Shown: piece by piece, positions 22,109 through 59,189 of the stretch
Layout of the letters: every line of letters starts with the position of its first letter
How positions within the stretch are numbered: position 1 is the stretch's first letter
DNA from: a virus
Taxonomy: Duplodnaviria > Caudoviricetes
IMG/VR virus record: IMGVR_UViG_2912723979_000001
Location: 23,894-87,893 of that record
Reading direction: 5' to 3' (one strand)
DNA: 64,000 bases
Made by a program: the position numbers and the translations under genes
The notes under the pieces: generated by a model
Told to the model about the DNA's origin: nothing
Databases searched by the model: none
What the model saw: the letters and a program-made list of their open reading frames with translations, nothing else

Positions 22109-22396
22109 TTGGCGGCTCGCGCGATACCGGCCGCCGCGGCCTTCACCGCGGCGGTTGTTGTTTACGCCCTGTACGTGTCCCGGCGGAACCGGCGGCTGCG
22201 GCTGGTGCTGGTCCGGGAGCGTGCCACGCATCATCTCGTGGCCGGCTGTCTGGCCCGGGATTTGGAGGAGTTCCGGAGCCGTCTGGGTGCGGCTGTTGCC
22301 CAGGACGCTGTGGCCGCGGCTGCTGGCCGGGGCCTGGGCGATGCTCTCGCCCACCACAACCCGACTGTCCCGCCTTCGGAGGGAGGACCCCGATGA
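22109..22396 (+). CDS. Small membrane-anchored protein
   Basis: GGAGG RBS, N-terminal TM. Confidence 0.55.
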   Translation: MAARAIPAAAAFTAAVVVYALYVSRRNRRLRLVLVRERATHHLVAGCLARDLEEFRSRLGAAVAQDAVAAAAGRGLGDALAHHNPTVPPSEGGPR

Positions 22397-23172
22397 ACCC
22401 GATGTCCCAGAGCAAGACGAGTGAGCAGCTGCGCCGCGCGTGGGTGGAGCACCCGCACTTCCGGTACCGCGGGTGCGCGCCGGATCCGGATGACCCGCTG
22501 CGGATGGTGGGCGATCCCGGCCTGCACGTCGGCGCGCATCACGGTCCGGACGCGTTCGCCCCAGAGGGGCAGAAGGAGCGGCGGGCCCGTGAGGAGCGGG
22601 CGATCGAGGTCTGCCTGAACTGCCCGGTGATGGTGCAGTGCGACCGGTACGCGTCGTCAGTGACGCCGGACGGCAGGCTGGCGGAGCCGGAGGGCGTGTG
22701 GGGTGGCCGGCGGTCGCTGGAGCGGCACAAGGCACTCATCCAGGCCCGGGTCGCAGTGACGGCGGCGCCGGACTCGGCATTCCAGACCGAGCAGAAGCAG
22801 GCCGTGCTCGCGGCGTTGGCGCGGTGCTGGGAGCCGCTTGCGGTAGCGGCGGCTGCCGGGATGGATGTGCGGACGGCGAACTGGCAGCGCTCCCAGCTGG
22901 TCCGGCTGCTGGGTCTGCCGAAGACCGTGTCGCGGATGCGGGTGCTGGCGGCCGCGCGGGAGCGGGGGCTGCTGGACGGTGTGCGGGTGATGCCGGATGA
23001 CGGCACGGTGCCGGCGCTGGCGCCGCCGACGAAGCTCCCCGCCCCGGCCCAGGCCCCGGCTGCGGGTGGTGTGGTCGTTCAGATGCGGCGGCCGCGCCGC
23101 TCCCACGCCGCGATGCCGGGCCAGTTGTCGTTCGAGTCTCTCGTCCCCACCACGTCTGGAGTTGCAGCATGA
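22393..23172 (+). CDS. WhiB-family Fe-S regulator with C-terminal HTH-like extension
   Basis: RGC...CLNCPVMVQC...GVWGG; internal insertion after first Cys. Confidence 0.8.
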   Translation: MNPMSQSKTSEQLRRAWVEHPHFRYRGCAPDPDDPLRMVGDPGLHVGAHHGPDAFAPEGQKERRAREERAIEVCLNCPVMVQCDRYASSVTPDGRLAEPEGVWGGRRSLERHKALIQARVAVTAAPDSAFQTEQKQAVLAALARCWEPLAVAAAAGMDVRTANWQRSQLVRLLGLPKTVSRMRVLAAARERGLLDGVRVMPDDGTVPALAPPTKLPAPAQAPAAGGVVVQMRRPRRSHAAMPGQLSFESLVPTTSGVAA

Positions 23173-27481: not shown

Positions 27482-27549
27482 GTGGTGACCATTGGTCACC
27501 ACCTTAGGGTCAGATAGACGACAAGGTGGTGACCATTGGTCACCACCTT
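27480..27549. repeat. Two perfect 25-bp palindromes (parS-like centromere candidate)
   Basis: AGGTGGTGACCA-T-TGGTCACCACCT at 27480-27504 and 27524-27548, 44-bp period, just downstream of par operon. Confidence 0.85.
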
Positions 27550-41787: not shown

Positions 41788-42783
41788 ATGACCGAGCGCC
41801 ACTACACCGCCTGGATGACCAACGACCCCAGCTGCGTCGTCGACGACTTCATGGACATCACCGTCATCGAGGACGTCGCCATCTCCTACAAGGAGGAGGT
41901 CGTCTCCGAGGAGGACGACCCCGAGACGGGCGAGGTCACCCGGGAGACCGTCGAAACCCCCGTCTGGGAGTCCCAGGGGCAGCAGATGTTCTACGCCGAG
42001 ACCAGTGTCGACGTCCGTGAGGGTGACGCCGAGGACGGTATCCGCGAGGCCGAGTCCCTGATGGAGAAGGCCGGCTGGAAGGTTGTCGGGGACTGGGAGG
42101 CCACCGACAACAGCTACACCGCCACGGTGGAGTACGTCGGCGAGTACCGGCACGTCATTGAGGCCACCGACAACGCCGAGGACCCGACCTGGTACGAGAT
42201 CGTCCGCGGTGACCAGGCCGAGGAGCACGACGACATCCCGGAGGAGTACGGCCTGCTGGTTTTGGAGAACTACTGGCCGGACAACGGCCTGGAGGTTCCG
42301 CCGCTGGCTGACGAGTACGGCAACCCTTACTACCGGGTGCTGGTCCGAACGCAGAACGATGACGCCACACTCGCCGTGGTGGAGTCCAGCGCTGCGGGCA
42401 TGACGCCGGCCGCGTTCAAGACGACCCGCGAGATGCTGGGCCTGTCGGACGGATGGCTTGCCGATCACCTGGGAGTGTCGTCCCGCACGGTCCGGAACTG
42501 GGAAGCCGGCAAGTACCCCGTTCCGCACGGTGTGGAGGTTCAAATGGACGCGCTGAAGCGGGAGACGCGCGCCGAGGTGGATCGGTTGGTTGCCAGCCTG
42601 CACGGCAAGCCGGCCCCACAGTTGGCCACCTACCGCAACGACGCCGACTACCAGGCAGCGAACCCTGAAAGCAAGTTCCCCGCCTCGTGGCACCGAGCGG
42701 TAGTGGCGCGGGTGGCGCTTCAGATGCCTGCCGTCGGCATCGTCTACGCCGAGGAGAACGCCGGCCTAAAGGACGGCGAGTGA
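41788..42783 (+). CDS. Acidic N-terminal domain fused to Aca2/DUF1870-like HTH
   Basis: ATG 41788 after GAAGGA; C-terminal MTPAAFKTTREMLGLS...LGVSSRTVRNWEAGKYPVP...ATYRNDADY. Confidence 0.8.
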   Translation: MTERHYTAWMTNDPSCVVDDFMDITVIEDVAISYKEEVVSEEDDPETGEVTRETVETPVWESQGQQMFYAETSVDVREGDAEDGIREAESLMEKAGWKVVGDWEATDNSYTATVEYVGEYRHVIEATDNAEDPTWYEIVRGDQAEEHDDIPEEYGLLVLENYWPDNGLEVPPLADEYGNPYYRVLVRTQNDDATLAVVESSAAGMTPAAFKTTREMLGLSDGWLADHLGVSSRTVRNWEAGKYPVPHGVEVQMDALKRETRAEVDRLVASLHGKPAPQLATYRNDADYQAANPESKFPASWHRAVVARVALQMPAVGIVYAEENAGLKDGE

Positions 42784-43781
42784 CGACGAGGCAGACACTT
42801 TCGGCGCGGATGCTCCCCGAGATCCGCGCCGAGCTGGTGCAGTGGCTCGCCGACACCGGCCCCGAAGGCGGGCAGGCTCGGTGGGCACAGGGCTTCGACC
42901 CGCACACCGCGCGCGAGGAACGCCAGGCCGCCGCCGACTGGGCGGTGGCCTTACGCGCTGCCGAGCTGTTCTTCGTGTCCAAGGACATGACCCGCATGGC
43001 CGTCTCGGCTGGTCTCGCACTCCCCTCCTACCGTCTCCACCCTGAGGACCTGCCCGCCACACATGGGCTGCTGCTGTGGGAGGAGTACGCCACCGACTCC
43101 TACGAAGGCGGCGAGTACACCGGCTGCCCCATCATCGGCGTCTCCTGGGCACAGCAGGGCAGCGGCGTGCAGTTCCGCACCTGGTGCCTGCGTGAGGACT
43201 GGGTGACGTTCATGGCCAAGGGCGACCCAAGGGCCGGGCTGAAGGATCTGACGCCCACGGAGGTGCGAGCGCTGCGGATGGCGTATCCGCAGCAGATCGT
43301 GTGCATGTCCCGCGGGTTCCTGCCGTTCGGCAAGGTTCCGGGCTGGCTGTCGTCGATGCCCGACGACACCAGCGGCATGGCCCTCGCAGAGCTGGAGGAC
43401 CACTCAAGGTCTGCTGGCCGGCAGGAGCAAGCCGAGCGCGCCTTGGTCGTGACGTGGCTGCTGATGGGGCAGACGTTGGCGCGCGAGGAGGAGACTGCGC
43501 CATCGAAGGCCTCGGCGAAGCACCTGCGCCGGATCGACCCAGGCCTGCTGACGAGCGTGCGCTACGTCCGGCTCCGTCATGCAGGAGCGGCGTCCCAGGT
43601 GGGCGGGAACGGCGGTGGACGGGCCTACCAGCACAGGTGGATTGTCCGTGGGCACTGGAGGAACCACTGGTACCCGTCCCGGCAGTCGCATCGCCCTATC
43701 TGGATCGACTCGCACGTCAAGGGTCCGGATGGGGCGCCGATCCTGGATCCGGACAAGCTGGTCAACGTACTGCGCCGCTGA
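42780..43781 (+). CDS. Conserved-looking phage hypothetical protein
   Basis: GTGA coupling; C-terminal HRWIVRGHWR...PIWIDSHVKGP; in-frame TTA at 42951. Confidence 0.7.
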   Translation: MTTRQTLSARMLPEIRAELVQWLADTGPEGGQARWAQGFDPHTAREERQAAADWAVALRAAELFFVSKDMTRMAVSAGLALPSYRLHPEDLPATHGLLLWEEYATDSYEGGEYTGCPIIGVSWAQQGSGVQFRTWCLREDWVTFMAKGDPRAGLKDLTPTEVRALRMAYPQQIVCMSRGFLPFGKVPGWLSSMPDDTSGMALAELEDHSRSAGRQEQAERALVVTWLLMGQTLAREEETAPSKASAKHLRRIDPGLLTSVRYVRLRHAGAASQVGGNGGGRAYQHRWIVRGHWRNHWYPSRQSHRPIWIDSHVKGPDGAPILDPDKLVNVLRR

Positions 43782-43788
43782 ACACACG

Positions 43789-43827
43789 ACCGCCCGCCTC
43801 GACGGGGGACGTAGCGAGGCGGGCGGT
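43789..43827. terminator. Terminator between convergent genes
   Basis: 13-bp stem ACCGCCCGCCTCG/CGAGGCGGGCGGT. Confidence 0.75.
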
Positions 43828-43985
43828 TCTGTGAGCAGTGTGCCACGCGGGGCCGACATCGTTGTGGTGGCTGTCGGCGTGGGTTGGTAGCGTGGGTGCA
43901 TCGTCAGTCGCCGCGGGCGGCTGGAAGACGTGGAGCCAGGTGACCCGGGGCAGACCGGGAGCCTGGCTCGGCGCTTTTCCGGGGG

Positions 43986-45032
43986 CTAGTTCGTCCAGGT
44001 TCCGTGGAGGGCGGAGACGCTGAAGCCGGGCCCGTAGGCGACCATCAGGGCCTGGGCGCCGTCGGCCGGGGGCTGGCTGTGGGTGCGCTCCAGGACGCGG
44101 AGCACGGAGACGCCGCCGAGGTTGCCCTCTTCGCTCAGGGTGTCGAGGGAGTGGCGGGCGTCGGTCTCGGTGAGGTCGAGGGCGGTGGCGGTGTCCATGA
44201 TGATCGGCTTGGAGCCGGGGTGGATGACCGGGACGGTGACGGGGCGGCCGTCGAGCCAGTCGAGGACGGCGGGCATGACGTGGCGGGCGCCGCCGGCGGC
44301 TTGCTTGGTGGAGTCGAAGTGCAGGCCCGTGGCGTCGATGCGGCCGGCGTAGAAGTCCAGCGAGCCTGGGAGCGCGTACTCGAAGAGGCCGTCTGCGTCG
44401 ACGGTGAGGCCGGGGCCGAGGGGGTCGCTGGAGACGATGGTGGCTGCGCCGCTGTCGCCGAAGAGGGCCTTGTAGATCATGTGCTCGATGGCGGTGTCGG
44501 CGTGGTTGTAGCTGGTGGAGAGGACTTCGGCGGCCACGACGAGGATGCGGGAGCCGGGGTACAGGAGGGCCTGTTCGGTGGCGCGGATGAGGGCGTGGGC
44601 TCCGCCAGCGCAGGCCGCGGTGGTGAGGGCGGTGCGCCGGATGCCGGGGTTGAGGCCGAGCCGGGCCACCAGGTGGATGTCGAGGTTGGGGACGCTCCAG
44701 CCGGTGGCGTGGGTGGTGATGAGGCCGGTGATGTCGCCGGGCTGGAGGCCGTGCCGGGTGAGGGTGGTGCGGGCGGCTTGTTCGGCCATGGTCAGGCCGT
44801 CGTTGAAGGCGCGGGCGGCGCGCTGGCCGATGTCGGCGGTGCCGTTGATGGTGGGGGAGTTCAGGGGCTGGGTGAAGTAGCGGGAGTCGACGCCGCAGTT
44901 GCCGAGGACGCGGAGGATCGCGCCGAGCCGGGGGTGGTTGGGGTGGTGGGCGCGGATGTCGTCGGCTATCTCCGGGGTGGTGATTTTGTGCGGGGCGAGG
45001 ACGGTGGTGGGGTGGGCGATGTGGACGGGCAT
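43986..45032 (-). CDS. Type III polyketide synthase (RppA/Gcs-like)
   Basis: Cys in TAACAGGA, His in IHPGSKPI, Asn in EGNLGG, plus LFGDSGAA and YGPGF; ATG 45032 after AGGGGG. Confidence 0.9.
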   Translation of the reverse strand: MPVHIAHPTTVLAPHKITTPEIADDIRAHHPNHPRLGAILRVLGNCGVDSRYFTQPLNSPTINGTADIGQRAARAFNDGLTMAEQAARTTLTRHGLQPGDITGLITTHATGWSVPNLDIHLVARLGLNPGIRRTALTTAACAGGAHALIRATEQALLYPGSRILVVAAEVLSTSYNHADTAIEHMIYKALFGDSGAATIVSSDPLGPGLTVDADGLFEYALPGSLDFYAGRIDATGLHFDSTKQAAGGARHVMPAVLDWLDGRPVTVPVIHPGSKPIIMDTATALDLTETDARHSLDTLSEEGNLGGVSVLRVLERTHSQPPADGAQALMVAYGPGFSVSALHGTWTN

Positions 45033-45164
45033 GGGTCCCCCCTTGGGCGCGCGACCTGAATTGCAGTCAAGGTACGGCAAAGTGGCCGGTTTGTTTCCCC
45101 TGCCATCGAAGCCATGGTCTCTCACGGCTCGTCAAAGCAGGGCAAAAAGCGCCTTCAAGGGGGT

Positions 45165-45980
45165 TCAGCGGGCTTGAAGCATTCCCGGGTTGGGGTGCGG
45201 CTGCCGCGGCCCCGGCCGAAACAGGAGCATCATGAACCGGGACCCGGGGGCCGTCAGGGGCTGTGCCACGCACATCGTCACCCAGCCCGGTCCTTCGACC
45301 GCGTGCCGGATGGGGCGTTCGTCGCCGTCGGGGTGGATGCTGGCGCCGCCGGCCTCGTACAAGGGGCGGGCGGCGGGGTCGGCGAGGACTTCGTCCTCGA
45401 TCTGCCGGAGCACCTTGTCGTCTGGGCGCTGGGCGAGCGCGGCCCGGAGCTGGGGCATGACGAGCGGGGCCCAGGCGGTGGCCCAGTCGGTGAGCTGGTC
45501 GCGGCCGTCGAGGAGCATCCACCGCATCGTGTTGCGTGGTGCTGTGCCGGCGTCGAACAGGGTGTGGAACGCGTTGTTGCAGGTGAGGAGGTTCCAGGAG
45601 GCGTCGGTGACGTAGGCGGGGTAGTTGACGGCGGCGACCGCGTCGGCCCAGGCTCCGGGGACGGCGTCGCCGGCGGTTTCGTGGAGCGGGCCGGGCGGGT
45701 CCTCGCCGCGCGCGTACCGGCACAGACTGGTCCACTCTTGCTCGCTCATGCCGTAAAGATGGGCGACATCGCGCAGGAGTTCAACCGGGGGGTTGGGGTA
45801 GTTCCCGGATTCGAGGCGCTGGTAGGTGCGGGTGGTGTAGCCGAGGAGCTGGTCGACCTGGTGCTGGGAGAGGCCGGGTGCGCGTCGGCCGCGGCCGGTG
45901 GGGCGGGGCAGGCCGTGGCTTTCGGGTGCTATCTGTTCGCGCCGTTGCCGGAGGAGCTTCTGGAGTGCTGGGCGGTTCAC
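45165..45980 (-). CDS. MmyB-like regulator (XRE HTH + PAS-like ligand-binding domain)
   Basis: LQKLLRQRREQI, GRRAPGLSQHQVDQL, PAYVTDASWNLLTCN, NTMRWML. Confidence 0.9.
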   Translation of the reverse strand: MNRPALQKLLRQRREQIAPESHGLPRPTGRGRRAPGLSQHQVDQLLGYTTRTYQRLESGNYPNPPVELLRDVAHLYGMSEQEWTSLCRYARGEDPPGPLHETAGDAVPGAWADAVAAVNYPAYVTDASWNLLTCNNAFHTLFDAGTAPRNTMRWMLLDGRDQLTDWATAWAPLVMPQLRAALAQRPDDKVLRQIEDEVLADPAARPLYEAGGASIHPDGDERPIRHAVEGPGWVTMCVAQPLTAPGSRFMMLLFRPGPRQPHPNPGMLQAR

Positions 45981-46380
45981 TGGTTTGCTATCCCCCCGAT
46001 GCTTGTTGACAAGACGTCAAGTGTAATTACTGTTACGCGTTTTTGCTGTAAAAGATTCGCTGTAGATATGCGGCCGTTGCGTGGTGCATGCTCTGTGACG
46101 CGTGGTCGCTGGCCTGCGGGTGTGCTGATCAGTGACGACGTGGATACACCCCTCCGCAGGGTCCGTCCGGGTCCCCTCGAATAACCGGTCGGTATCCAGC
46201 AGAGGGGCCGGGAACGGAAAGTCGACAAGTTTCCGGTTTTGGTGTCGTTTCCCCCAGCAGGGAATCGCAGCGCGACGCCCGGACCGGAGCAGGCCGGCCG
46301 TGGTTCCCTGGCTGCCAGGTTGCTGCGGCCGGTGCCCTCCCGCCCCATACCAGGGGCCTCGGTACCGGCCGCCCGCGCAC

Positions 46381-46608
46381 TCACAACACCTGGCCTTCGA
46401 CGTGCTGGTGCTCGTCCCGGTGCGCCCCGCACAGTGTCCCGAACAGGTCGGCCCGGCAGGCTCCTGGCCCCTGGTAGACGTGGTGCCCGATGTGGCCGAC
46501 GTTGATGGTCTGCTGCCCGGTGAGCGGCGGCGGGGTGGGCTGCCGGTGTAGCGCCTCGAGGGCTTCTATCCGGCGCAGCAGGTCCCGCTTGGACACTCGC
46601 TTCCTCAT
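46381..46608 (-). CDS. Small Cys/His protein
   Basis: GAGG RBS; GHIGHHVYQGPGAC...LCGAHRDEH. Confidence 0.5.
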   Translation of the reverse strand: MRKRVSKRDLLRRIEALEALHRQPTPPPLTGQQTINVGHIGHHVYQGPGACRADLFGTLCGAHRDEHQHVEGQVL

Positions 46609-46720
46609 GAGTCCTCGTGGTCGGTCGCTTGGGTAGCTGCTGCCGGCGCAGGTTGCGCCGTGTTCCAGGGGGCGCCCGGCCGGGGCGAGTGCTCCGGCCG
46701 GGGTGAGGATGAAGGACTGG

Positions 46721-46942
46721 TCACGGCTGTTCGTCGTCCCCGTCACCGCTGTCCCGGCGTTCGATGGAGACGATGGATTCGGGCCGAATCTCGGCTTCTC
46801 CGCCGCCTGCGAGGGAGAAATCAGCGAATTTGCCCAGGGTGGCAAGATAGGCGACCCGCTCGGCGTGCTCGGCGATGGAGTAACCGCAGGTGAGGGCTTC
46901 GACGGTGTGTTCGGTGGCGCCGACGGCGTATCGGATGGTCAT
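46721..46942 (-). CDS. Hypothetical protein
   Basis: 73 aa in leftward operon. Confidence 0.5.
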   Translation of the reverse strand: MTIRYAVGATEHTVEALTCGYSIAEHAERVAYLATLGKFADFSLAGGGEAEIRPESIVSIERRDSGDGDDEQP

Positions 46943-47029
46943 GGTGCTGGTGGTCCAGTTGGCGATGGCAGCGCGGGCTTTCAGGTCTGCGTCCCGGTCG
47001 GTGGTGATGACGGTTCTCCTTCGATCAGG

Positions 47030-47170
47030 TCAGCCGTTGAAGTTCGGCGGTTCGGCCCAGTAGTTCTCGTTGGCCTGGTTGATCCCGTCGCAGTAGCAGT
47101 GCGGTGCGGTGCGGTCGCTGTACTGCGGGCAATCCTCGTAGTGGTCGGGGGTGTTGGTCTGCTCGATCAT
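47030..47170 (-). CDS. Small hypothetical protein
   Basis: AGGAG RBS; HYEDC...HCYCD. Confidence 0.5.
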   Translation of the reverse strand: MIEQTNTPDHYEDCPQYSDRTAPHCYCDGINQANENYWAEPPNFNG

Positions 47171-47199
47171 GCTGTTCTCCTTCTTGGGGGGTGTCGTGG

Positions 47200-47487
47200 T
47201 CACTGCTGCTCCTCGTCGCGGTGCGGGGTGGCGCCGGGACTGCTGTCGTTCCACACGTACCGGCCGAGGGGAGTGTTGTAGGGGCTGGCGTGCCAGTCGC
47301 CGTACTCGCCGCCTGTGTGTCCGACGCGGAACGCGCAGGTGTACAGGCCGCCACTCTCGGGGTTGAGGCGGGCAGTGCAGGGCGGGATGCCGGCGTGGGT
47401 GGTGGTGATGTGCTGATCCATGCCGCCTCGGGGCTGCGGCTGGCCGCAGTGAGGGCATGGCGCGGGGATGAGGTCGCTGAGGGTCAC
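47200..47487 (-). CDS. C2H2-like Zn-finger protein
   Basis: CPHC...MDQHITTTH; second C/H cluster. Confidence 0.55.
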   Translation of the reverse strand: MTLSDLIPAPCPHCGQPQPRGGMDQHITTTHAGIPPCTARLNPESGGLYTCAFRVGHTGGEYGDWHASPYNTPLGRYVWNDSSPGATPHRDEEQQ

Positions 47488-47973
47488 GGTGGCGTCCTGT
47501 CTGCCGTGTGCCTGTGTGGGCACTGGGGCGGGGTCAGGCGTTGATGGCTCGCGCGACGGCGAGGGCGGCGGATAGGGCGCAGGTCTCCGGGCTGCACCAG
47601 TTGTCGCATTCCTCGTGGGCGGGGCTGGCTTCGCGGGCGCTGGAGAGGACGCCTTCGAGCAGGGTGGCGAGGGCGAGGCCGAGGGTGGGGTCCATGGTGG
47701 CGATGTAGTCGCCTACCGGAGCTGATACGTAAGCGGGCGGCCGGCCTCGTCCACCGCCGCCTCGAAGAAGTGTCCGACTTCCGGTCGCCCACAGGGCGGT
47801 GAATGTGGAGTCGGGCTGCTCGGGGAAGTGCCGGGTGGTGTGCCAGGCGGTGCTGCCGCTGTCGTCGGCTGCCGCGGTGGCGAGTGCCCGCAACTTGCTG
47901 GCGGCGGTGCGAATCTCGTCGGCGGGTGTCACGGTGGTGTCCTGTCTGTCGCGCGCCTGTGTGGGCGCTGGGG
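47484..47973 (-). repeat. 45-bp imperfect direct repeat at two gene starts
   Basis: 47484-47528 and 47929-47973, 5 mismatches. Confidence 0.8.
47534..47932 (-). CDS. Hypothetical protein
   Basis: MTPADEIRTAASKLRALA...ALAVARAIN. Confidence 0.65.
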   Translation of the reverse strand: MTPADEIRTAASKLRALATAAADDSGSTAWHTTRHFPEQPDSTFTALWATGSRTLLRGGGGRGRPPAYVSAPVGDYIATMDPTLGLALATLLEGVLSSAREASPAHEECDNWCSPETCALSAALAVARAINA

Positions 47974-48089
47974 GCTGTGTGGCGGGCGCGGTGTAACGCG
48001 GGTGCCTGCGGGGCCTGTTCGTCCGCGAGAGGCCCGCTCAAGCCCCGCCGTGGACCCCGGCCGCGCGGGGGCAGCCGGGGCAGAACGAG

Positions 48090-48821
48090 TCAGGGGCGCG
48101 GGGTGAATGGGTGGTACCACGAGCGCTCGCCGTCCTCGGGGCAGAGTCGGCACTGCGGGTCGGCGTACTTCGCGTCGTGATACGCCCGACCGTGACCGCA
48201 CCGGCAGAGTGTCTCCTCCCCGTCGGCTGCCGCGGCCTGCTGCCCGTCGTCCTCGCGCCGCTCATCGTGCGCGTCGCACGGGATGTCGTCGGCCGCGTGG
48301 ATGTCGTAGCGGCAGGGCGGGGCACTGCACGGGGTACGCACCTCGGTGTCGGGCTGCTGCTGCGCCCCGGAGCGCGCCTCGACGGCCAGACGGCGCAGCT
48401 CGGTCTCTGCGCGCTCGATCCCGGCCAGGTACTTCCCGGTGGCGTCCGGAGCAGTGATCAGGCTGTCGCGGAGGGCCAGCATCTTGTCGGCTGCCTCCTC
48501 CAGCACGGCGGCCCGGTCGGCGGGCTCGGGGAGCACGGCCAGCACCGCGTCCACGTCCCGCATCAAGCCCTCGGGGTACTGGCCGCTACGGTCACGGCTT
48601 CCAGGGCGGAGCGCCTCGGCGATGCGGTCGCGGAGTGCGGCCCGGCTCGGCGGCGGGGACACCACGGCAGGGGGAGCGGCGCGCAGGCGGGCTACCTCTT
48701 CACGCAGTGCTACCACCTGCGAGAAGAGCCAGACGACGCCATCGGAAATCACCCTTCCGGTAGAGGCGTACTCAGCACGTAGCTCAGCAAGACGGTCGGC
48801 GGTCGGGTCGGTCTGGTTCAC
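48090..48821 (-). CDS. Hypothetical protein
   Basis: ALRDRIAEAL, ADRAAVLEEAAD, C-terminal CRCGH. Confidence 0.6.
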   Translation of the reverse strand: MNQTDPTADRLAELRAEYASTGRVISDGVVWLFSQVVALREEVARLRAAPPAVVSPPPSRAALRDRIAEALRPGSRDRSGQYPEGLMRDVDAVLAVLPEPADRAAVLEEAADKMLALRDSLITAPDATGKYLAGIERAETELRRLAVEARSGAQQQPDTEVRTPCSAPPCRYDIHAADDIPCDAHDERREDDGQQAAAADGEETLCRCGHGRAYHDAKYADPQCRLCPEDGERSWYHPFTPRP

Positions 48822-48833
48822 GGTGGTCTCCAG

Positions 48834-49013
48834 TCAGTGAGTGGCGGCGTGGTCAGCGGCCTGCGTCTCGGCGTCCGCCTCCGACACGGCCAGCCCGCGG
48901 GCCTGGCAGCGCACCGGACGCGGATCAGCACCGACCTGACGGGTGTGCAGGCACTCCCACCGCCACAAATAGGCGGCGCTGTGGGGGTTGGGGCGTACTC
49001 GGTAGGTCGTCAC
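48834..49013 (-). CDS. Small hypothetical protein
   Basis: GAGG RBS, GTG 49013. Confidence 0.45.
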   Translation of the reverse strand: MTTYRVRPNPHSAAYLWRWECLHTRQVGADPRPVRCQARGLAVSEADAETQAADHAATH

Positions 49014-49084
49014 GGGTTCCTCGGTAGGGTTCGGGGTGCCGCGGCCGGCCCTGCTTCTCTCAGGGCCGGCCGTGGCGTTGGTGG

Positions 49085-49306
49085 TCACGCGCCCGTGCTG
49101 GCGGTGAAGCAGGCACGGCAGTTCCGGTCACCGCACGGTTGGCCCGCGGTGTGCGAGGCGGCGATGCGGTCGAGTTCGGCGCGGATCTCCGGGTCGTCGA
49201 CGATGGCCCCGGCGATGAAGAACGCGAGCTTCCAGGTGTCGACGTGGCAGTTGATCCGCTGGGCGAGCAGATGGCGGAGGCGGTCGTCGGCGGGCGGGTA
49301 GGTCAC
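49085..49306 (-). CDS. Hypothetical protein
   Basis: 73 aa, C-terminal CGDRNCRAC. Confidence 0.55.
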   Translation of the reverse strand: MTYPPADDRLRHLLAQRINCHVDTWKLAFFIAGAIVDDPEIRAELDRIAASHTAGQPCGDRNCRACFTASTGA

Positions 49307-49316
49307 GTGTGTCTCC

Positions 49317-49649
49317 TCAGACGGCGTCGGACCGGACGGCTTCGCAGCCGGGGCAGTCGTCGGTGGCGGGCGGGTTGATGCCGAGCGCGCGGAGGACGGC
49401 GTTCAGGACAGTCCCGGGATCGGCGCCCTCCTGGCCGGCGGCGCCCTCGATGGCGTGCCAGGCCCGGTTGTGCTCGGACTCGGTGAGGGTGCGGGCGCGG
49501 CAGCGGCGGACTTCGGCGACGAGCGCGGGCACGTCGGCATCGGTCAGCTGGCCGAAGTCGGGGTGCGCGTTGGGGTCGATGGTGGCGGTGCGCTCGTAGA
49601 GGCGGGCTGCGCGGGCCTGGATGGCGTCGAGGTCGAGCTGGTCGGTCAT
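49317..49649 (-). CDS. Hypothetical protein
   Basis: LDLDAIQARAA, DVPALVAEVRR. Confidence 0.6.
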   Translation of the reverse strand: MTDQLDLDAIQARAARLYERTATIDPNAHPDFGQLTDADVPALVAEVRRCRARTLTESEHNRAWHAIEGAAGQEGADPGTVLNAVLRALGINPPATDDCPGCEAVRSDAV

Positions 49650-49698
49650 TGCTGACTCCTGAGTAAGTAGGTGCTGTGGTTGTGGTGCGGCAGAGCGG

Positions 49699-50103
49699 TC
49701 AGGCGGTGGGCTGGGTCGCGGCGGGGTCGACCTCGGGGTGGGTGAACGTGACCGGCTTGCCGAGGCTGCGCGCGTACTCGATCTCCGCGCGGGTGGAGTC
49801 GCCGATGTAGTTGCCGACGACGAGGATCTGGTGGGCGAGCCGGATCTTGGCCCGGTGGAGGGCGTCCAGGCGCTGCTTGCCGGCTTCGGCTTCCGCGGGG
49901 TCGGACCACAAGGGGTGCGGGTTCTTCATGTCGCAGCCGGGGCGCACGACGATGTGGCCGCGCCAGGTGAGGTCGCGGTCGGCGTCGGCCATCTCGGTCA
50001 TGAAGCGGGTGCTGCCGCAGATGGCGACGATGGTGGGGATGCCGAGCCGGTCCAGAGCGGTGGTGAGCATCTCGGCGGGGGTGAGGGCCTGCGGGTAGGT
50101 CAC
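49699..50103 (-). CDS. Rossmann-like (nucleoside deoxyribosyltransferase/SLOG-like) protein
   Basis: IVAICGSTRF, LHRAKIRLAHQILVV, YIGDSTRAEIEYARSLGKPV. Confidence 0.65.
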   Translation of the reverse strand: MTYPQALTPAEMLTTALDRLGIPTIVAICGSTRFMTEMADADRDLTWRGHIVVRPGCDMKNPHPLWSDPAEAEAGKQRLDALHRAKIRLAHQILVVGNYIGDSTRAEIEYARSLGKPVTFTHPEVDPAATQPTA

Positions 50104-50119
50104 GGGTTCTCCTCGGGGG

Positions 50120-50692
50120 TCAGGCGGTGTTCGGCAGTGCTTCGTTGGCCTGCCAGAGGGGGCAGTGGAGGACGGGGAACCGGTACTCCTCGTACTCGGG
50201 GCCGTCGGGGTGGGTGCAGGCCTCGTTGTCTTCCGGGCCGGCGTCCTGGTGGTGGGTGCAGGTCTTGCAGCAGCGGAGCCGCGGGTTGGACCAGCAGCGG
50301 GCCATGTGGTCCTTGACGGCGGCTTGGTCGGCGCGGGTGAAGCGGCGGCAGAACGGGCACTGGTGGCGGGACACGATGATGGGCAGGGGCAGGTCGATCG
50401 TGAGGCTGGCGTGGTTGGTGGGCTTGCGGGTGATCCGGTAGGCGGCGTGGAGGGTGGCTGCGGCCTTCGCGGTGTTGACGGGAGTCCAGGGGGCGTCGGT
50501 GTTGGGGGTGGATGCGATGCAGTTGGCGATTTCGTGCCGGTTGTTGAGGCTGGGGCCTTCCTTCGCGGCGAGGTCGAAGGTGCGGAGGAGGTGGCTGGCG
50601 GTGTCGTAGTCGTTGTGGATCTCGGGGCCGAACTGGTGGGTGAGCCAGTCGGTGAGTTCGGTCTCGGTGATGAGGGTCTGCACGGTGGTCAC
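50120..50692 (-). CDS. Cys-rich hypothetical protein
   Basis: CPFC...H..RC, CCKTC.H, CPLW. Confidence 0.6.
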   Translation of the reverse strand: MTTVQTLITETELTDWLTHQFGPEIHNDYDTASHLLRTFDLAAKEGPSLNNRHEIANCIASTPNTDAPWTPVNTAKAAATLHAAYRITRKPTNHASLTIDLPLPIIVSRHQCPFCRRFTRADQAAVKDHMARCWSNPRLRCCKTCTHHQDAGPEDNEACTHPDGPEYEEYRFPVLHCPLWQANEALPNTA

Positions 50693-50782: not shown

Positions 50783-50820
50783 GTTCTACTGTACCGCCCT
50801 ATGCATTGCTAAGCAATGCA
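50783..50820 (-). promoter_or_regulatory. Promoter with palindromic operator (copy 3)
   Basis: Minus strand TTGCTT-17-TACAGT under TGCATTGCT-N-AGCAATGCA. Confidence 0.85.
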
Positions 50821-57600: not shown

Positions 57601-58866
57601 CTACTCCAGGGCATCAGCCCTATCTGCCAGCGCCATCAGCTCGGGCGGGGCACCAGCTCCCTCGACAAGGACCAGCTCCCGGATTGCTTTCCGGGCGGCT
57701 ACGTGCGTGCGCACCGTCTCGGGGGTCAGCTCCTCGGCCCGCAACAGGCATGCCAGAGCCTCGCCCGTGTGGCGACGCTGCGCGTGCGCTCGCCCCAGGT
57801 CCATCAGCAGCCGTCCCTGTCGCTCCGGTGACAGCGCCTCGGCGTTGATCCCACGACCGATGTCCAGAGCCTCGCCGGCGTCACCCAGCTCCACCGCGGT
57901 GGACACGGCCTGGATCTCGACGTTGGTGGCGCCGAACTCCAGGTTGAAGTCGTTACGATCTTCCCCGATTCGCGCTGCCAGGTCGCGGGCCTTCGCCAGT
58001 TCATCTCGGGCCTCGGTGCGCTGTGCTGCACGGGCATGGACCAGGGCAAGAGCCAGATGAAGCGAGCCCAAGACGGACATGCCCTGCACGGCGAGCTTGC
58101 CCTGGCCGTCGATGGCCTCAAGAGCCGCGATAGCCGTGTTGGCCGCATGCTCGGCCTGGTTTAGGCGCTTGAGCCGGACGAACGCCTGAACCATGCGGAA
58201 GACGCCGGCACCCACATGCAGTGGGTCACCGGACTTCTCCGCAGCCCAGATAGCCCGGTCAGCAGCGACCCAGGCAGCATCGGCCTCGTCCTGCCGGACG
58301 AACGCCGCAGCCAGCGCCTGATAGGTGCGGGCGAGGAGCAGGTACGCATCAGCTTGCCGATCCTCGCTGACGACTCTGACTGTCTGCTCCAGGTCGGGAA
58401 GCAGATCGGTCAGACGAGCGCTGACGTCGGCGAAGTTGCCCTCGTGGGTCTCCTGCCACATCGTCTCTACTTCGCCAGCCAACTCCTCGATGGAGCGCCG
58501 CGGCGTAGGGCGGACAGCACCCAGCAGGGTGCCGATCGCAGGGTGCCCGGAGATCAGCTTTCGGGCCTCCTCCAGATCGTTGGACCGGTACTCGGGCTGC
58601 GGCACGGCTCCGTTCGCCGCACTCGGCAGGGGAGCACCCGGCCGGAGCTGCTGGACGGACACACCGAGGGCATCAGCCAGGTCCTGGAGAACGTCTATCC
58701 GCTCAACAGGCTGCACACCGCGCTCCACCTGAGACATCCAGCTGGACGTCTTCTGCAGCTTTGCGGCGAGTTGCTGCTGGGTTAGGTTCCGCTCCTTCCG
58801 GAGCCGCTGCACATGCCGACCGAAGGCGCGATCCTTCGGCTCGACCTCCTTTCCTGTGGGCTTCAC
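57601..58866 (-). CDS. XRE HTH + TPR-like helical repeat repressor
   Basis: GRHVQRLRKERNLTQQQLAAKLQKTSSWMSQVERG; ~300 aa all-helical C-terminus. Confidence 0.85.
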   Translation of the reverse strand: MKPTGKEVEPKDRAFGRHVQRLRKERNLTQQQLAAKLQKTSSWMSQVERGVQPVERIDVLQDLADALGVSVQQLRPGAPLPSAANGAVPQPEYRSNDLEEARKLISGHPAIGTLLGAVRPTPRRSIEELAGEVETMWQETHEGNFADVSARLTDLLPDLEQTVRVVSEDRQADAYLLLARTYQALAAAFVRQDEADAAWVAADRAIWAAEKSGDPLHVGAGVFRMVQAFVRLKRLNQAEHAANTAIAALEAIDGQGKLAVQGMSVLGSLHLALALVHARAAQRTEARDELAKARDLAARIGEDRNDFNLEFGATNVEIQAVSTAVELGDAGEALDIGRGINAEALSPERQGRLLMDLGRAHAQRRHTGEALACLLRAEELTPETVRTHVAARKAIRELVLVEGAGAPPELMALADRADALE

Positions 58867-59189
58867 GGTGCCTCCGGTGATTGGGGCCGCTTGCCGGCCG
58901 TCTCGTTGAGGAACTGCACGTCCACGCCGACCAAGTACTGCTCGCGTTCGGCCAGCATCCGCTTCGTGTGGGGCTGGTTCTCATGGGCCTCGAAGGCGTT
59001 CTTGTCGGCGTACAGCTCGTAGAAGACGCGCACCAGGGGCTCGTCCACGGGGGTGTGGCTTACGTAGACCAGCGTTCCGGGTTCGGTGCGGATGCCCTCG
59101 AGCGTGCGGGCGACCAGGGCGTCGAACTGCTGAGCTGCATCGGCGTCGCGGCACTTGAACCGCACGGTGAGTGCGTATCCGCTTGTCAC
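58863..59189 (-). CDS. ABM-family (antibiotic biosynthesis monooxygenase-like) protein
   Basis: GTG 59189 after GGAGGAG; EPGTLVY, FYELYADKNAFEAHENQPH; stop overlaps repressor start. Confidence 0.85.
   Translation of the reverse strand: MTSGYALTVRFKCRDADAAQQFDALVARTLEGIRTEPGTLVYVSHTPVDEPLVRVFYELYADKNAFEAHENQPHTKRMLAEREQYLVGVDVQFLNETAGKRPQSPEAP

Follow-up and report, generated by a model that had tools for sequence, protein, structure and literature searches.

The DNA analyzed here is a 64,000-nucleotide stretch (the window) that covers bases 23894-87893 of the 87,893-bp IMG/VR record IMGVR_UViG_2912723979_000001, which corresponds to a circular plasmid, unnamed3 (NZ_CP058980.1), from Streptomyces sp. 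NEAU-sy36. On its minus strand, the window carries a gene for a polyketide synthase (PKS) of type III directly downstream of a gene for a regulator with a putative ligand-binding domain, a pair in which an earlier, sequence-only reading had seen a possible phage-encoded communication circuit. Judged by homology and gene architecture, this locus is a new copy of the characterized two-gene vioA/vioB violapyrone cassette, residing on a phage-plasmid of the pZL12 type. We regard it as probable that the cassette represents lysogenic-conversion cargo that would make alkyl-pyrones under a local, ligand-responsive repressor, which is the most economical reading.

The vioB-vioA pair and its carrier element

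The two genes are:
43986..45032, minus strand: vioA-type type III PKS, 348 aa (Pfam, PDB relatives, identity to pCQ3.110c; RefSeq WP_180333939.1, named 'PhlD' there)
45165..45980, minus strand: vioB-type regulator, 271 aa, GTG start, with an XRE helix-turn-helix (HTH) and an MmyB/MltR-like PAS-type ligand-binding domain (Pfam, fold match)

The open frame of the PKS spans 43986-45125 on the minus strand. Its likely start is the ATG at 45032, 4 nt past the ribosome-binding site (RBS) AAGGGGGGA, which yields the same 348 aa as the RefSeq call and is where conservation with relatives begins. The protein matches Pfam Chal_sti_synt_N with 76 bits (cut-off 27), its C-terminal half matches under the cut-off, and 108 relatives were found in the PDB, the best being germicidin synthase (Gcs; 3v7i, 1e-35), followed by tetrahydroxynaphthalene (THN) synthase (THNS; 1u0m, 4e-34). 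By these sequence matches to solved type III PKSs, we consider the fold settled. C141, H271 and N304 align with C138, H270 and N303 of THNS, and the triad is invariant among 14 diverse orthologues, as are the gatekeeper Phe F191 and the GPGF loop; the intact 348-aa enzyme with a Cys-His-Asn triad described in the sequence-only reading is thereby confirmed. The active-site motifs EVLSTSYNHAD and EGNLGG are Gcs- and VioA-like. Aligned over its full length, the PKS shares 63% identity (E 3e-155) with pCQ3.110c, itself 95% identical to VioA (PMC4924298); Y228 and S241 match Y229 and S242 of VioA, and S174 stands where VioA has I174. The PKS lacks both the cysteines specific to THNS and Tyr224, so that identity as a THN synthase (RppA) was rejected. 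Nor is there support for the database names PhlD and THN synthase: NCBIfam scores fall far short of their cut-offs, the best match, DpgA, reaching 85 bits against 425. PHROGs gave no family for the PKS or the regulator.

The regulator combines an N-terminal XRE HTH (HTH_31, 39 bits) with a C-terminal PAS-like domain (MLTR_LBD, 56 bits, cut-off 26). For its AlphaFold (AF2) model (pLDDT 87.5), Foldseek ranked MltR (3pxp) first (E 4.7e-9) and found no other match over the full length; PAS domains came next. The sequence profile of the regulator reached 3pxp at E 0.05 only. It is about 59% identical to the regulators of pCQ3 and pCQ4, of which pCQ4.19c is 95% identical to VioB according to the published work (PMC4924298). 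The XRE and PAS-like MmyB regulator noted earlier directly upstream of the PKS was thus recovered by HTH_31, MLTR_LBD and the fold match to 3pxp.

Both genes have counterparts in Streptomyces somaliensis SCSIO ZH66, where a circular plasmid of about 85 kb carries vioA, encoding a 350-aa type III PKS 95% identical to pCQ3.110c, and vioB, encoding a 272-aa XRE regulator 95% identical to pCQ4.19c (PMC4924298). Deletion of vioA abolished violapyrone B, and deletion of vioB raised it about 8-fold and led to the appearance of four analogues, which identified VioB as a negative regulator; as deletion of the small flanking orfs had no effect, the cluster comprises two genes only (PMC4924298). In the same host, loss of WblA lowered vioB transcripts and raised vioA transcripts (PMC4924298). 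The products of VioA, the violapyrones, are 3-methyl-4-hydroxy-6-alkyl-alpha-pyrones (PMC4924298, PMC5898002). VioA groups with Cpz6, DpyA and Gcs, and its residues I174, Y229 and S242 matter for production, I174A being severely defective (PMC5898002). A further 21 vioAB loci have been tabulated, 'most on plasmids', among them that of S. leeuwenhoekii pSLE1 in Table S3 (PMC5898002).

The assignment of the present copy follows from its position in the same 99*-supported tree clade as the VioA-type sequences and from its architecture: the XRE regulator gene adjoins the PKS gene in the same orientation, and the unit formed by these two holds no tailoring genes. As in S. somaliensis, an XRE/MmyB-like regulator lies directly 5' of a PKS of about 350 aa on a circular plasmid of about 85-90 kb, identities to the near-identical proxies on pCQ3 and pCQ4 being 63% (PKS) and 59% (regulator), with the triad and the Y229 and S242 equivalents kept. 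The copy differs in that it belongs to another sub-clade, with its nearest chromosomal copies 85%/79% identical, in the Ser in place of I174, and in the sequence and position of its operator-like palindromes. For its product and the repressor role of its regulator, we rely on the literature on this 63%/59% relative. Since Cpz6, at 53% identity to VioA, makes the same compound (presulficidin A = violapyrone (VLP) B; PMC4924298), an alkyl-pyrone product is likely here as well, even though this sub-clade has Ser in place of VioA I174.

By its gene content, the carrier is a phage-plasmid of the pZL12 type. RefSeq annotates virion and lysis genes (terminase, head decoration, major capsid, tape measure and tail proteins, GH25 lysozyme) on the same replicon as genes for ParA, a DciA-like protein, DnaB, SSB, Rad52, an integrase and a WhiB-family regulator, and it is this joint presence of virion, lysis, partition and replication genes that leads to the assignment. 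The CheckV completeness of the record is 97%. With its counterpart from plasmid-phage pZL12, the capsid shares 57% identity. Capsids 47-100% identical to the present one are encoded by 34 Streptomyces/Kitasatospora plasmids with sizes from about 85 to 152 kb, 33 of which fall between 85 and 94 kb. The phage setting claimed for the pair therefore holds, as that of a phage-plasmid. Like the present element, pZL12 (GQ919031; pZL12.99/pZL12.100) and pSLE1 (PMC4487206) are phage-plasmids with virion, par and rep genes and carry the same gene pair; their PKSs are 60.5% and 78% identical to the present one, and the pSLE1 regulator is 73% identical. A type III PKS was already annotated on pZL12 (2010) and pSLE1 (2015; PMC4487206), with its function left open. 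In the deposited pZL12.100 coding sequence (L001:7707-9050; 447 aa), the annotated start lies about 98 codons too far 5', with an overlap with pZL12.99 as the result; relatives align only from L001:8001 onward.

Among other known systems, Gcs and Cpz6/DpyA belong to the same bacterial type III PKS sub-clade, with Gcs-like active-site motifs and shared lactonizing pyrone chemistry. However, the similarity to Gcs is distant (E 1e-35), the PKS has Gly where Gcs has Leu at the CHS-256 position, and Gcs and Cpz6 lack a dedicated MmyB-like partner. MmyB and MltR (3pxp) share with the regulator the XRE HTH and the PAS-like ligand domain, MLTR_LBD scoring above its cut-off and the fold match extending over the full length, whereas the identity to MltR is only about 17%.

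The enzyme, its product class, the sign of its regulation and its location on plasmids were in print before, as was the remark 'T3PKS only in prophages on plasmids'. The violapyrone papers (PMC4924298, PMC5898002) never mention that the carrier plasmids are phages, and, in the literature searched, no report connected violapyrones to phages or type III PKSs to MmyB-like regulators. What is added here is that these carrier 'plasmids' are tailed phage-plasmids, that the vio cluster is a sharply bounded 2.4-kb cassette shuttling between phage-plasmids and chromosomes, and that about three quarters of the phage-plasmid family keep it under purifying selection, with one sub-lineage lacking both genes.

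Borders, distribution and selection of the cassette

Three hairpins frame the pair:
46325..46373, minus strand: conserved GC-rich hairpin (GGCCGGTACC ... GGCACCGGCC; GGCCGGTRCC consensus), 5' border of the mobile cassette
43928..43974, minus strand: hairpin just 3' of the vioA stop, -28.1 kcal/mol, z -2.25, outside the conserved cassette
43783..43833, both strands: strong bidirectional terminator hairpin, -36.4 / -38.9 kcal/mol, z about -6.4 on both strands

One end of the nucleotide homology between the phage-plasmid copy and the chromosomal copies coincides exactly with the vioA stop codon (43984/6), and the other lies at about 46373; in every copy compared, the homology starts at the 46325-46373 hairpin, which lies directly 3' of the stop codon of the upstream gene. 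These sharp limits define a 2.4-kb unit that encloses the two genes only. The border hairpin could be an insulating terminator or a recombination site, and we assign it neither role; its predicted fold is no better than that of shuffled sequences. No direct repeats flank the cassette. At the other end, each copy has its own, unrelated downstream hairpin, and in the window the 43783-43833 hairpin separates the vioA unit from a convergent DUF1870/Aca2-like operon. A terminator downstream of the PKS and the absence of export, resistance or tailoring genes next to the pair, both stated in the sequence-only reading, agree with these observations at the locus. PADLOC gave no match for the PKS or the regulator.

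The cassette lies within about 10 kb (window 41788-50692, record 65681-74585) that have no counterpart in pSAM1, which is otherwise syntenic with the element up to a DUF6233 gene. This region, which also holds the DUF1870/Aca2-like operon and an 11-gene leftward array, represents the hypervariable cargo region of the family. The six array genes nearest the cassette gave no family when scanned against PHROG.

The regulator gene lies directly 5' of the PKS gene, on the same strand, in all 88 loci with both ends present; contigs cut within the pair (L026 and the IMG/VR contig L006) were left out of this count. The pair is adjacent in pZL12, in eight IMG/VR contigs, in about 35 PLSDB plasmids and in the best 80 of 173 species-genome matches, which were the ones examined. 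It also occurs on a Kitasatospora phage-plasmid (PKS 40% identical) and on a phage-plasmid of S. platensis (PKS 48%). Most species-genome matches lack a phage setting, and an orthologue turned up in 28 Streptomyces species genomes out of the 401 sampled. Thirty-five loci share a common chromosomal neighborhood, with a GNAT gene just 3' and genes for acyl-CoA dehydrogenase, MurT, Def, TetR and EamA around them. The closest relatives of the present copy (78-85% identical) are found among ECF sigma, phosphodiesterase, DEAD-helicase and hydrolase genes, a set that differs by lineage. In the chromosomal syntenic loci (L033:9126-9914 and 34 others), the GNAT acetyltransferase gene directly follows the PKS gene on the same strand and may be a third gene of the chromosomal version; a TetR gene takes its place in 11 other loci.

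In the PKS tree, the chromosomal syntenic copies fall into a 51-row clade (96*), of which 35 share the syntenic neighborhood. Copies from phage-plasmids take a basal position and populate a second clade, in which the present copy is nested (96*) among 12 chromosomal copies. The regulator tree shows the same major groups, and the two genes are co-inherited. Among the 34 capsid-related phage-plasmids, 26 carry the cassette. PF00195 and PF17765 were not found in the five relatives searched (pSAM1, CP108822.1, CP075614.1, NZ_CP107756.1 and NZ_CP109172.1), and three further ones had no match for the cassette among the matches listed. The capsid is 90.5% identical to that of CP108805.1, yet the PKSs share only 63.5%, which indicates that cassette alleles and backbones have been reshuffled. 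The plasmid CP042280.1 of Streptomyces sp. WAC08241 is unannotated, and its PKS and capsid genes each match in four pieces, a pattern that speaks for frameshifts from sequencing and against decay.

On phage-plasmids and chromosomes alike, purifying selection acts on both genes. In the closer phage-plasmid/plasmid pairs (amino-acid identity at least 85%), dN/dS by NG86, a rough measure at this GC3, was 0.14-0.39 for the PKS and 0.09-0.21 for the regulator, rising to 0.68 where divergence was greater. That the cassette has long been associated with phage-plasmids argues, together with this selection, against the recent unselected chromosomal capture that the sequence-only reading had itself raised as a counter-case. 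Beyond the 26 capsid-related phage-plasmids, the pair occupies many phage-free chromosomal sites.

Putative control regions of the two genes

The following elements were recognized in the two upstream regions:
45033..45164, minus strand: vioB-vioA intergenic region, candidate vioA promoter and operator (footprint alignments)
45066-45082, minus strand: conserved block CTTTGCCGTACCTTGAC, with a -10-like TACCTT at 45069-45074
45053-45070, minus strand: imperfect palindrome TTGACTGCAATTCAGGTC in the vioB-vioA spacer
45132-45146, minus strand: related upstream box TTTGCCCTGCTTTGA in the vioB-vioA spacer
45981..46140, minus strand: conserved AT-rich candidate vioB control region, 45% GC, conserved in own-clade and pZL12-clade copies
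46047-46052 and 46024-46029, minus strand: TTTACA and TAATTA with a 17-nt spacer, vioB control region
46006-46020, minus strand: palindrome TTGACGTCTTGTCAA (TTGAC-N5-GTCAA type) between the vioB -10-like box and the RBS
46125-46132, minus strand: CTGATCAG, vioB control region

Footprint alignments revealed a TAnnnT element 45-55 nt 5' of the PKS start in all three clades. The present copy has TACCTT at this place, members of the pZL12/VioA clade have TAGGTT, and chromosomal copies have TACGTT. The retention of this element in all clades points to a dedicated vioA promoter, and the spacer elements around it may serve as promoter and operator. Folded as a single RNA sequence, the spacer (45033-45170) reached -62.8 kcal/mol (z -4.8 against shuffles). 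As no compensatory changes or covariation occurred among the 12 related copies aligned, the structured-RNA reading was dropped, and the conservation is read as acting at the DNA level. Upstream of the regulator, the AT-rich region mentioned in the sequence-only reading proved real: the GC content of 45981-46075, in the putative vioB control region, is 45% (about 69% elsewhere), and its sequence is kept among copies of the cassette.

Operator-like palindromes accompany the genes in several clades. In the clade of the present copy, GACCTGATCAGGTC-type sites overlap the predicted vioA start region and are degenerate in this window (45053-45070); in the pZL12 clade, CCCCTGATCAGGGG lies about 80 nt 5' of vioA, and a hairpin follows vioB; about 20 chromosomal copies have TGATCA 45 nt 5' of vioB. 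TGATCA-type palindromes recur at fixed positions in several clades, though the copies depend on one another phylogenetically. The positions of the palindromes at both promoters would suit a repressor and agree with the effect of deleting vioB. Counts of the operator motifs over the window and the rest of the record gave no sign of a wider regulon on the element: CTGATCAG occurred once in the window (0.84 expected), and TGAC-N4-9-GTCA five times in the window (6.2 expected) and three times in the rest of the record (3.9 expected). Simple scans for sigma-70 promoters and T-tract terminators returned no result, as expected for Streptomyces. A look-up of RNA data for window positions 43700-46400 listed none.

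Possible roles of the cassette and further features of the element

In our proposal, the vioB-vioA cassette belongs to the accessory cargo, as a 'moron', that a pZL12-like phage-plasmid of Streptomyces carries in its hypervariable region. VioA, as a type III PKS of the Gcs/Cpz6 clade, would most likely condense a medium-chain, fatty-acid-derived beta-ketoacyl thioester with methylmalonyl-CoA and then lactonize the product to 3-methyl-4-hydroxy-6-alkyl-alpha-pyrones. VioB, an XRE regulator of the MmyB/MltR type with a predicted lipid-type pocket, most likely binds palindromes at the promoter of vioA, probably also at that of vioB, and would hold the synthase repressed until some ligand or host cue (in S. 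somaliensis, WblA loss) lowers VioB activity. With its own 5' hairpin, two putative promoters and no other conserved partner, the cassette would be self-contained and move as a unit between phage-plasmids and chromosomes. The pyrone would benefit the lysogen or the element, and the cassette would stand outside the lysis-lysogeny switch. In Streptomyces, violapyrone production would then offer a clean and testable example of a small-molecule gene that brings about lysogenic conversion.

Several points weigh against this proposal. MmyB itself is an activator of its own cluster, whereas VioB behaves as a repressor. An identity of 63% is no guarantee of the same product, and the equivalent of VioA I174 is Ser in the clade of the present copy. 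The candidate operators vary in sequence and position among clades and are not above chance in the window. The repressor role of VioB comes from one strain (PMC4924298). Retention in 26 of 34 phage-plasmids and purifying selection would also fit a role in the biology of the element itself.

The synthase/receptor pair of the sequence-only reading stands with respect to gene identities, functional pairing, control region and phage(-plasmid) setting, but not as a phage-specific polyketide arbitrium, and we consider it highly improbable that a phage-encoded circuit of this kind sets lysis-lysogeny, induction or copy number of the phage-plasmid. Such a circuit would be consistent with the frequent retention of the cassette, which includes the Kitasatospora element at 40% identity, with purifying selection on phage-plasmids and with the ligand-type receptor domain suggested by the fold match. 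However, the same cassette occupies chromosomal sites without phage genes (a 51-locus chromosomal clade, 35 of them syntenic), neither gene was found in the five related phage-plasmids searched, including pSAM1, and the cassette lies in the hypervariable cargo region and does not adjoin the repressor, integrase or replication modules. The candidate operator is not repeated above chance elsewhere on the element, and the S. somaliensis genes were studied for their product only, with no plasmid or phage phenotype reported and none sought (PMC4924298). Given the already published vioAB pair, the phage-free sites, the relatives without the cassette and its cargo location, control of lysis-lysogeny or copy number by a polyketide is unsupported; the pair is neither confined to phages nor, by the operator counts, wired to a lysis-lysogeny regulator. 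With arbitrium (AimP/AimR/AimX of SPbeta-like phages) it shares merely the formal idea of a phage-borne signal producer and receptor. Arbitrium uses a peptide signal, is integral to the lysogeny module and is restricted to phages, whereas the vio cassette is cargo, also occurs outside phages and has its own synthase as sole conserved target. The communication reading derives solely from the pairing of a synthase with a ligand-type regulator, a general property of the chromosomal copies too. An attractive over-reading is thus corrected.

Signaling might instead operate at the level of the host, with violapyrones as autoinducers that VioB senses, so that release of repression creates positive feedback and phage-plasmids are mere carriers of a portable quorum-type synthase/receptor module, comparable to photopyrone/PluR or germicidin autoregulation. 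We think this unlikely. In its favor, only the synthase, the regulator and their two promoter regions are conserved in all contexts, purifying selection is stronger on the regulator than on the PKS in most pairs, and VioB has a predicted MltR-type pocket, which in 3pxp holds a fatty acid whose polar head and alkyl tail resemble a violapyrone in shape. Nevertheless, the rise in product upon vioB deletion equally fits a plain pathway repressor (PMC4924298), the operator-motif counts make no further regulon evident, and violapyrones have antibiotic-type activities (PMC4924298, PMC5898002). Weak activity against MRSA and activity against influenza A (H1N1) (PMC4924298, PMC5898002) would suit cargo for chemical defense or competition, in which pyrones shield the lysogen from superinfecting phages, hold back the growth or germination of competitors, or serve as sulfate carriers like the caprazamycin presulficidins, given that VLP B is presulficidin A (PMC4924298). 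That phages carry biosynthetic weapons (Dragos 2021, as cited in PMC10023795) is compatible with such a role. PADLOC matches are absent, though, RefSeq annotates no sulfotransferase on the element, and antibacterial potency is low, with an MIC of 25 ug/mL at best (PMC4924298); we give this explanation a slim chance, and it overlaps with the cargo proposal, which leaves the ecological role wide. Quite improbable, finally, is the idea that violapyrones are diffusible signals read by VioB that let phage-plasmids of the pZL12 family, which would keep the cassette for this reason, sense lysogen density or host lipid metabolism and thereby tune the plasmid or lytic cycle or hold neighboring spores dormant; if true, violapyrone/VioB signaling would be a polyketide counterpart of phage communication.

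Some further features of the element and of related regulators were observed. Regulators 55-58% identical to the present one occur without a PKS on linear Streptomyces plasmids (L014:5001-5837 and L015:5001-5837), where each is followed by a 76-aa ORF beside ParA/ParB and primase genes; the regulator tree places them together with L044 and L086. The element itself encodes a WhiB-family regulator of 259 aa (window 22393-23172, record 46286-47065), and an action of this phage Wbl on the vio cassette is conceivable, as transcript levels of vioB and vioA in S. somaliensis depend on the host WblA (PMC4924298). About 12.6 kb from the PKS, on the minus strand, a gene for a 421-aa HTH regulator has its start overlapped by an antibiotic-biosynthesis-monooxygenase (ABM) gene (window 57601-59189, record 81494-83082); a link to pyrone tailoring is a possibility. 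At the head of the 11-gene leftward array lies a promoter inside the palindrome GCATTGCTTAGCAATGC (about 50800-50816). Two identical palindromes TGACCATTGGTCA at window positions 27486-27498 and 27530-27542, 44 bp apart and situated between the rep/DciA and par operons, are probably partition or replication sites.

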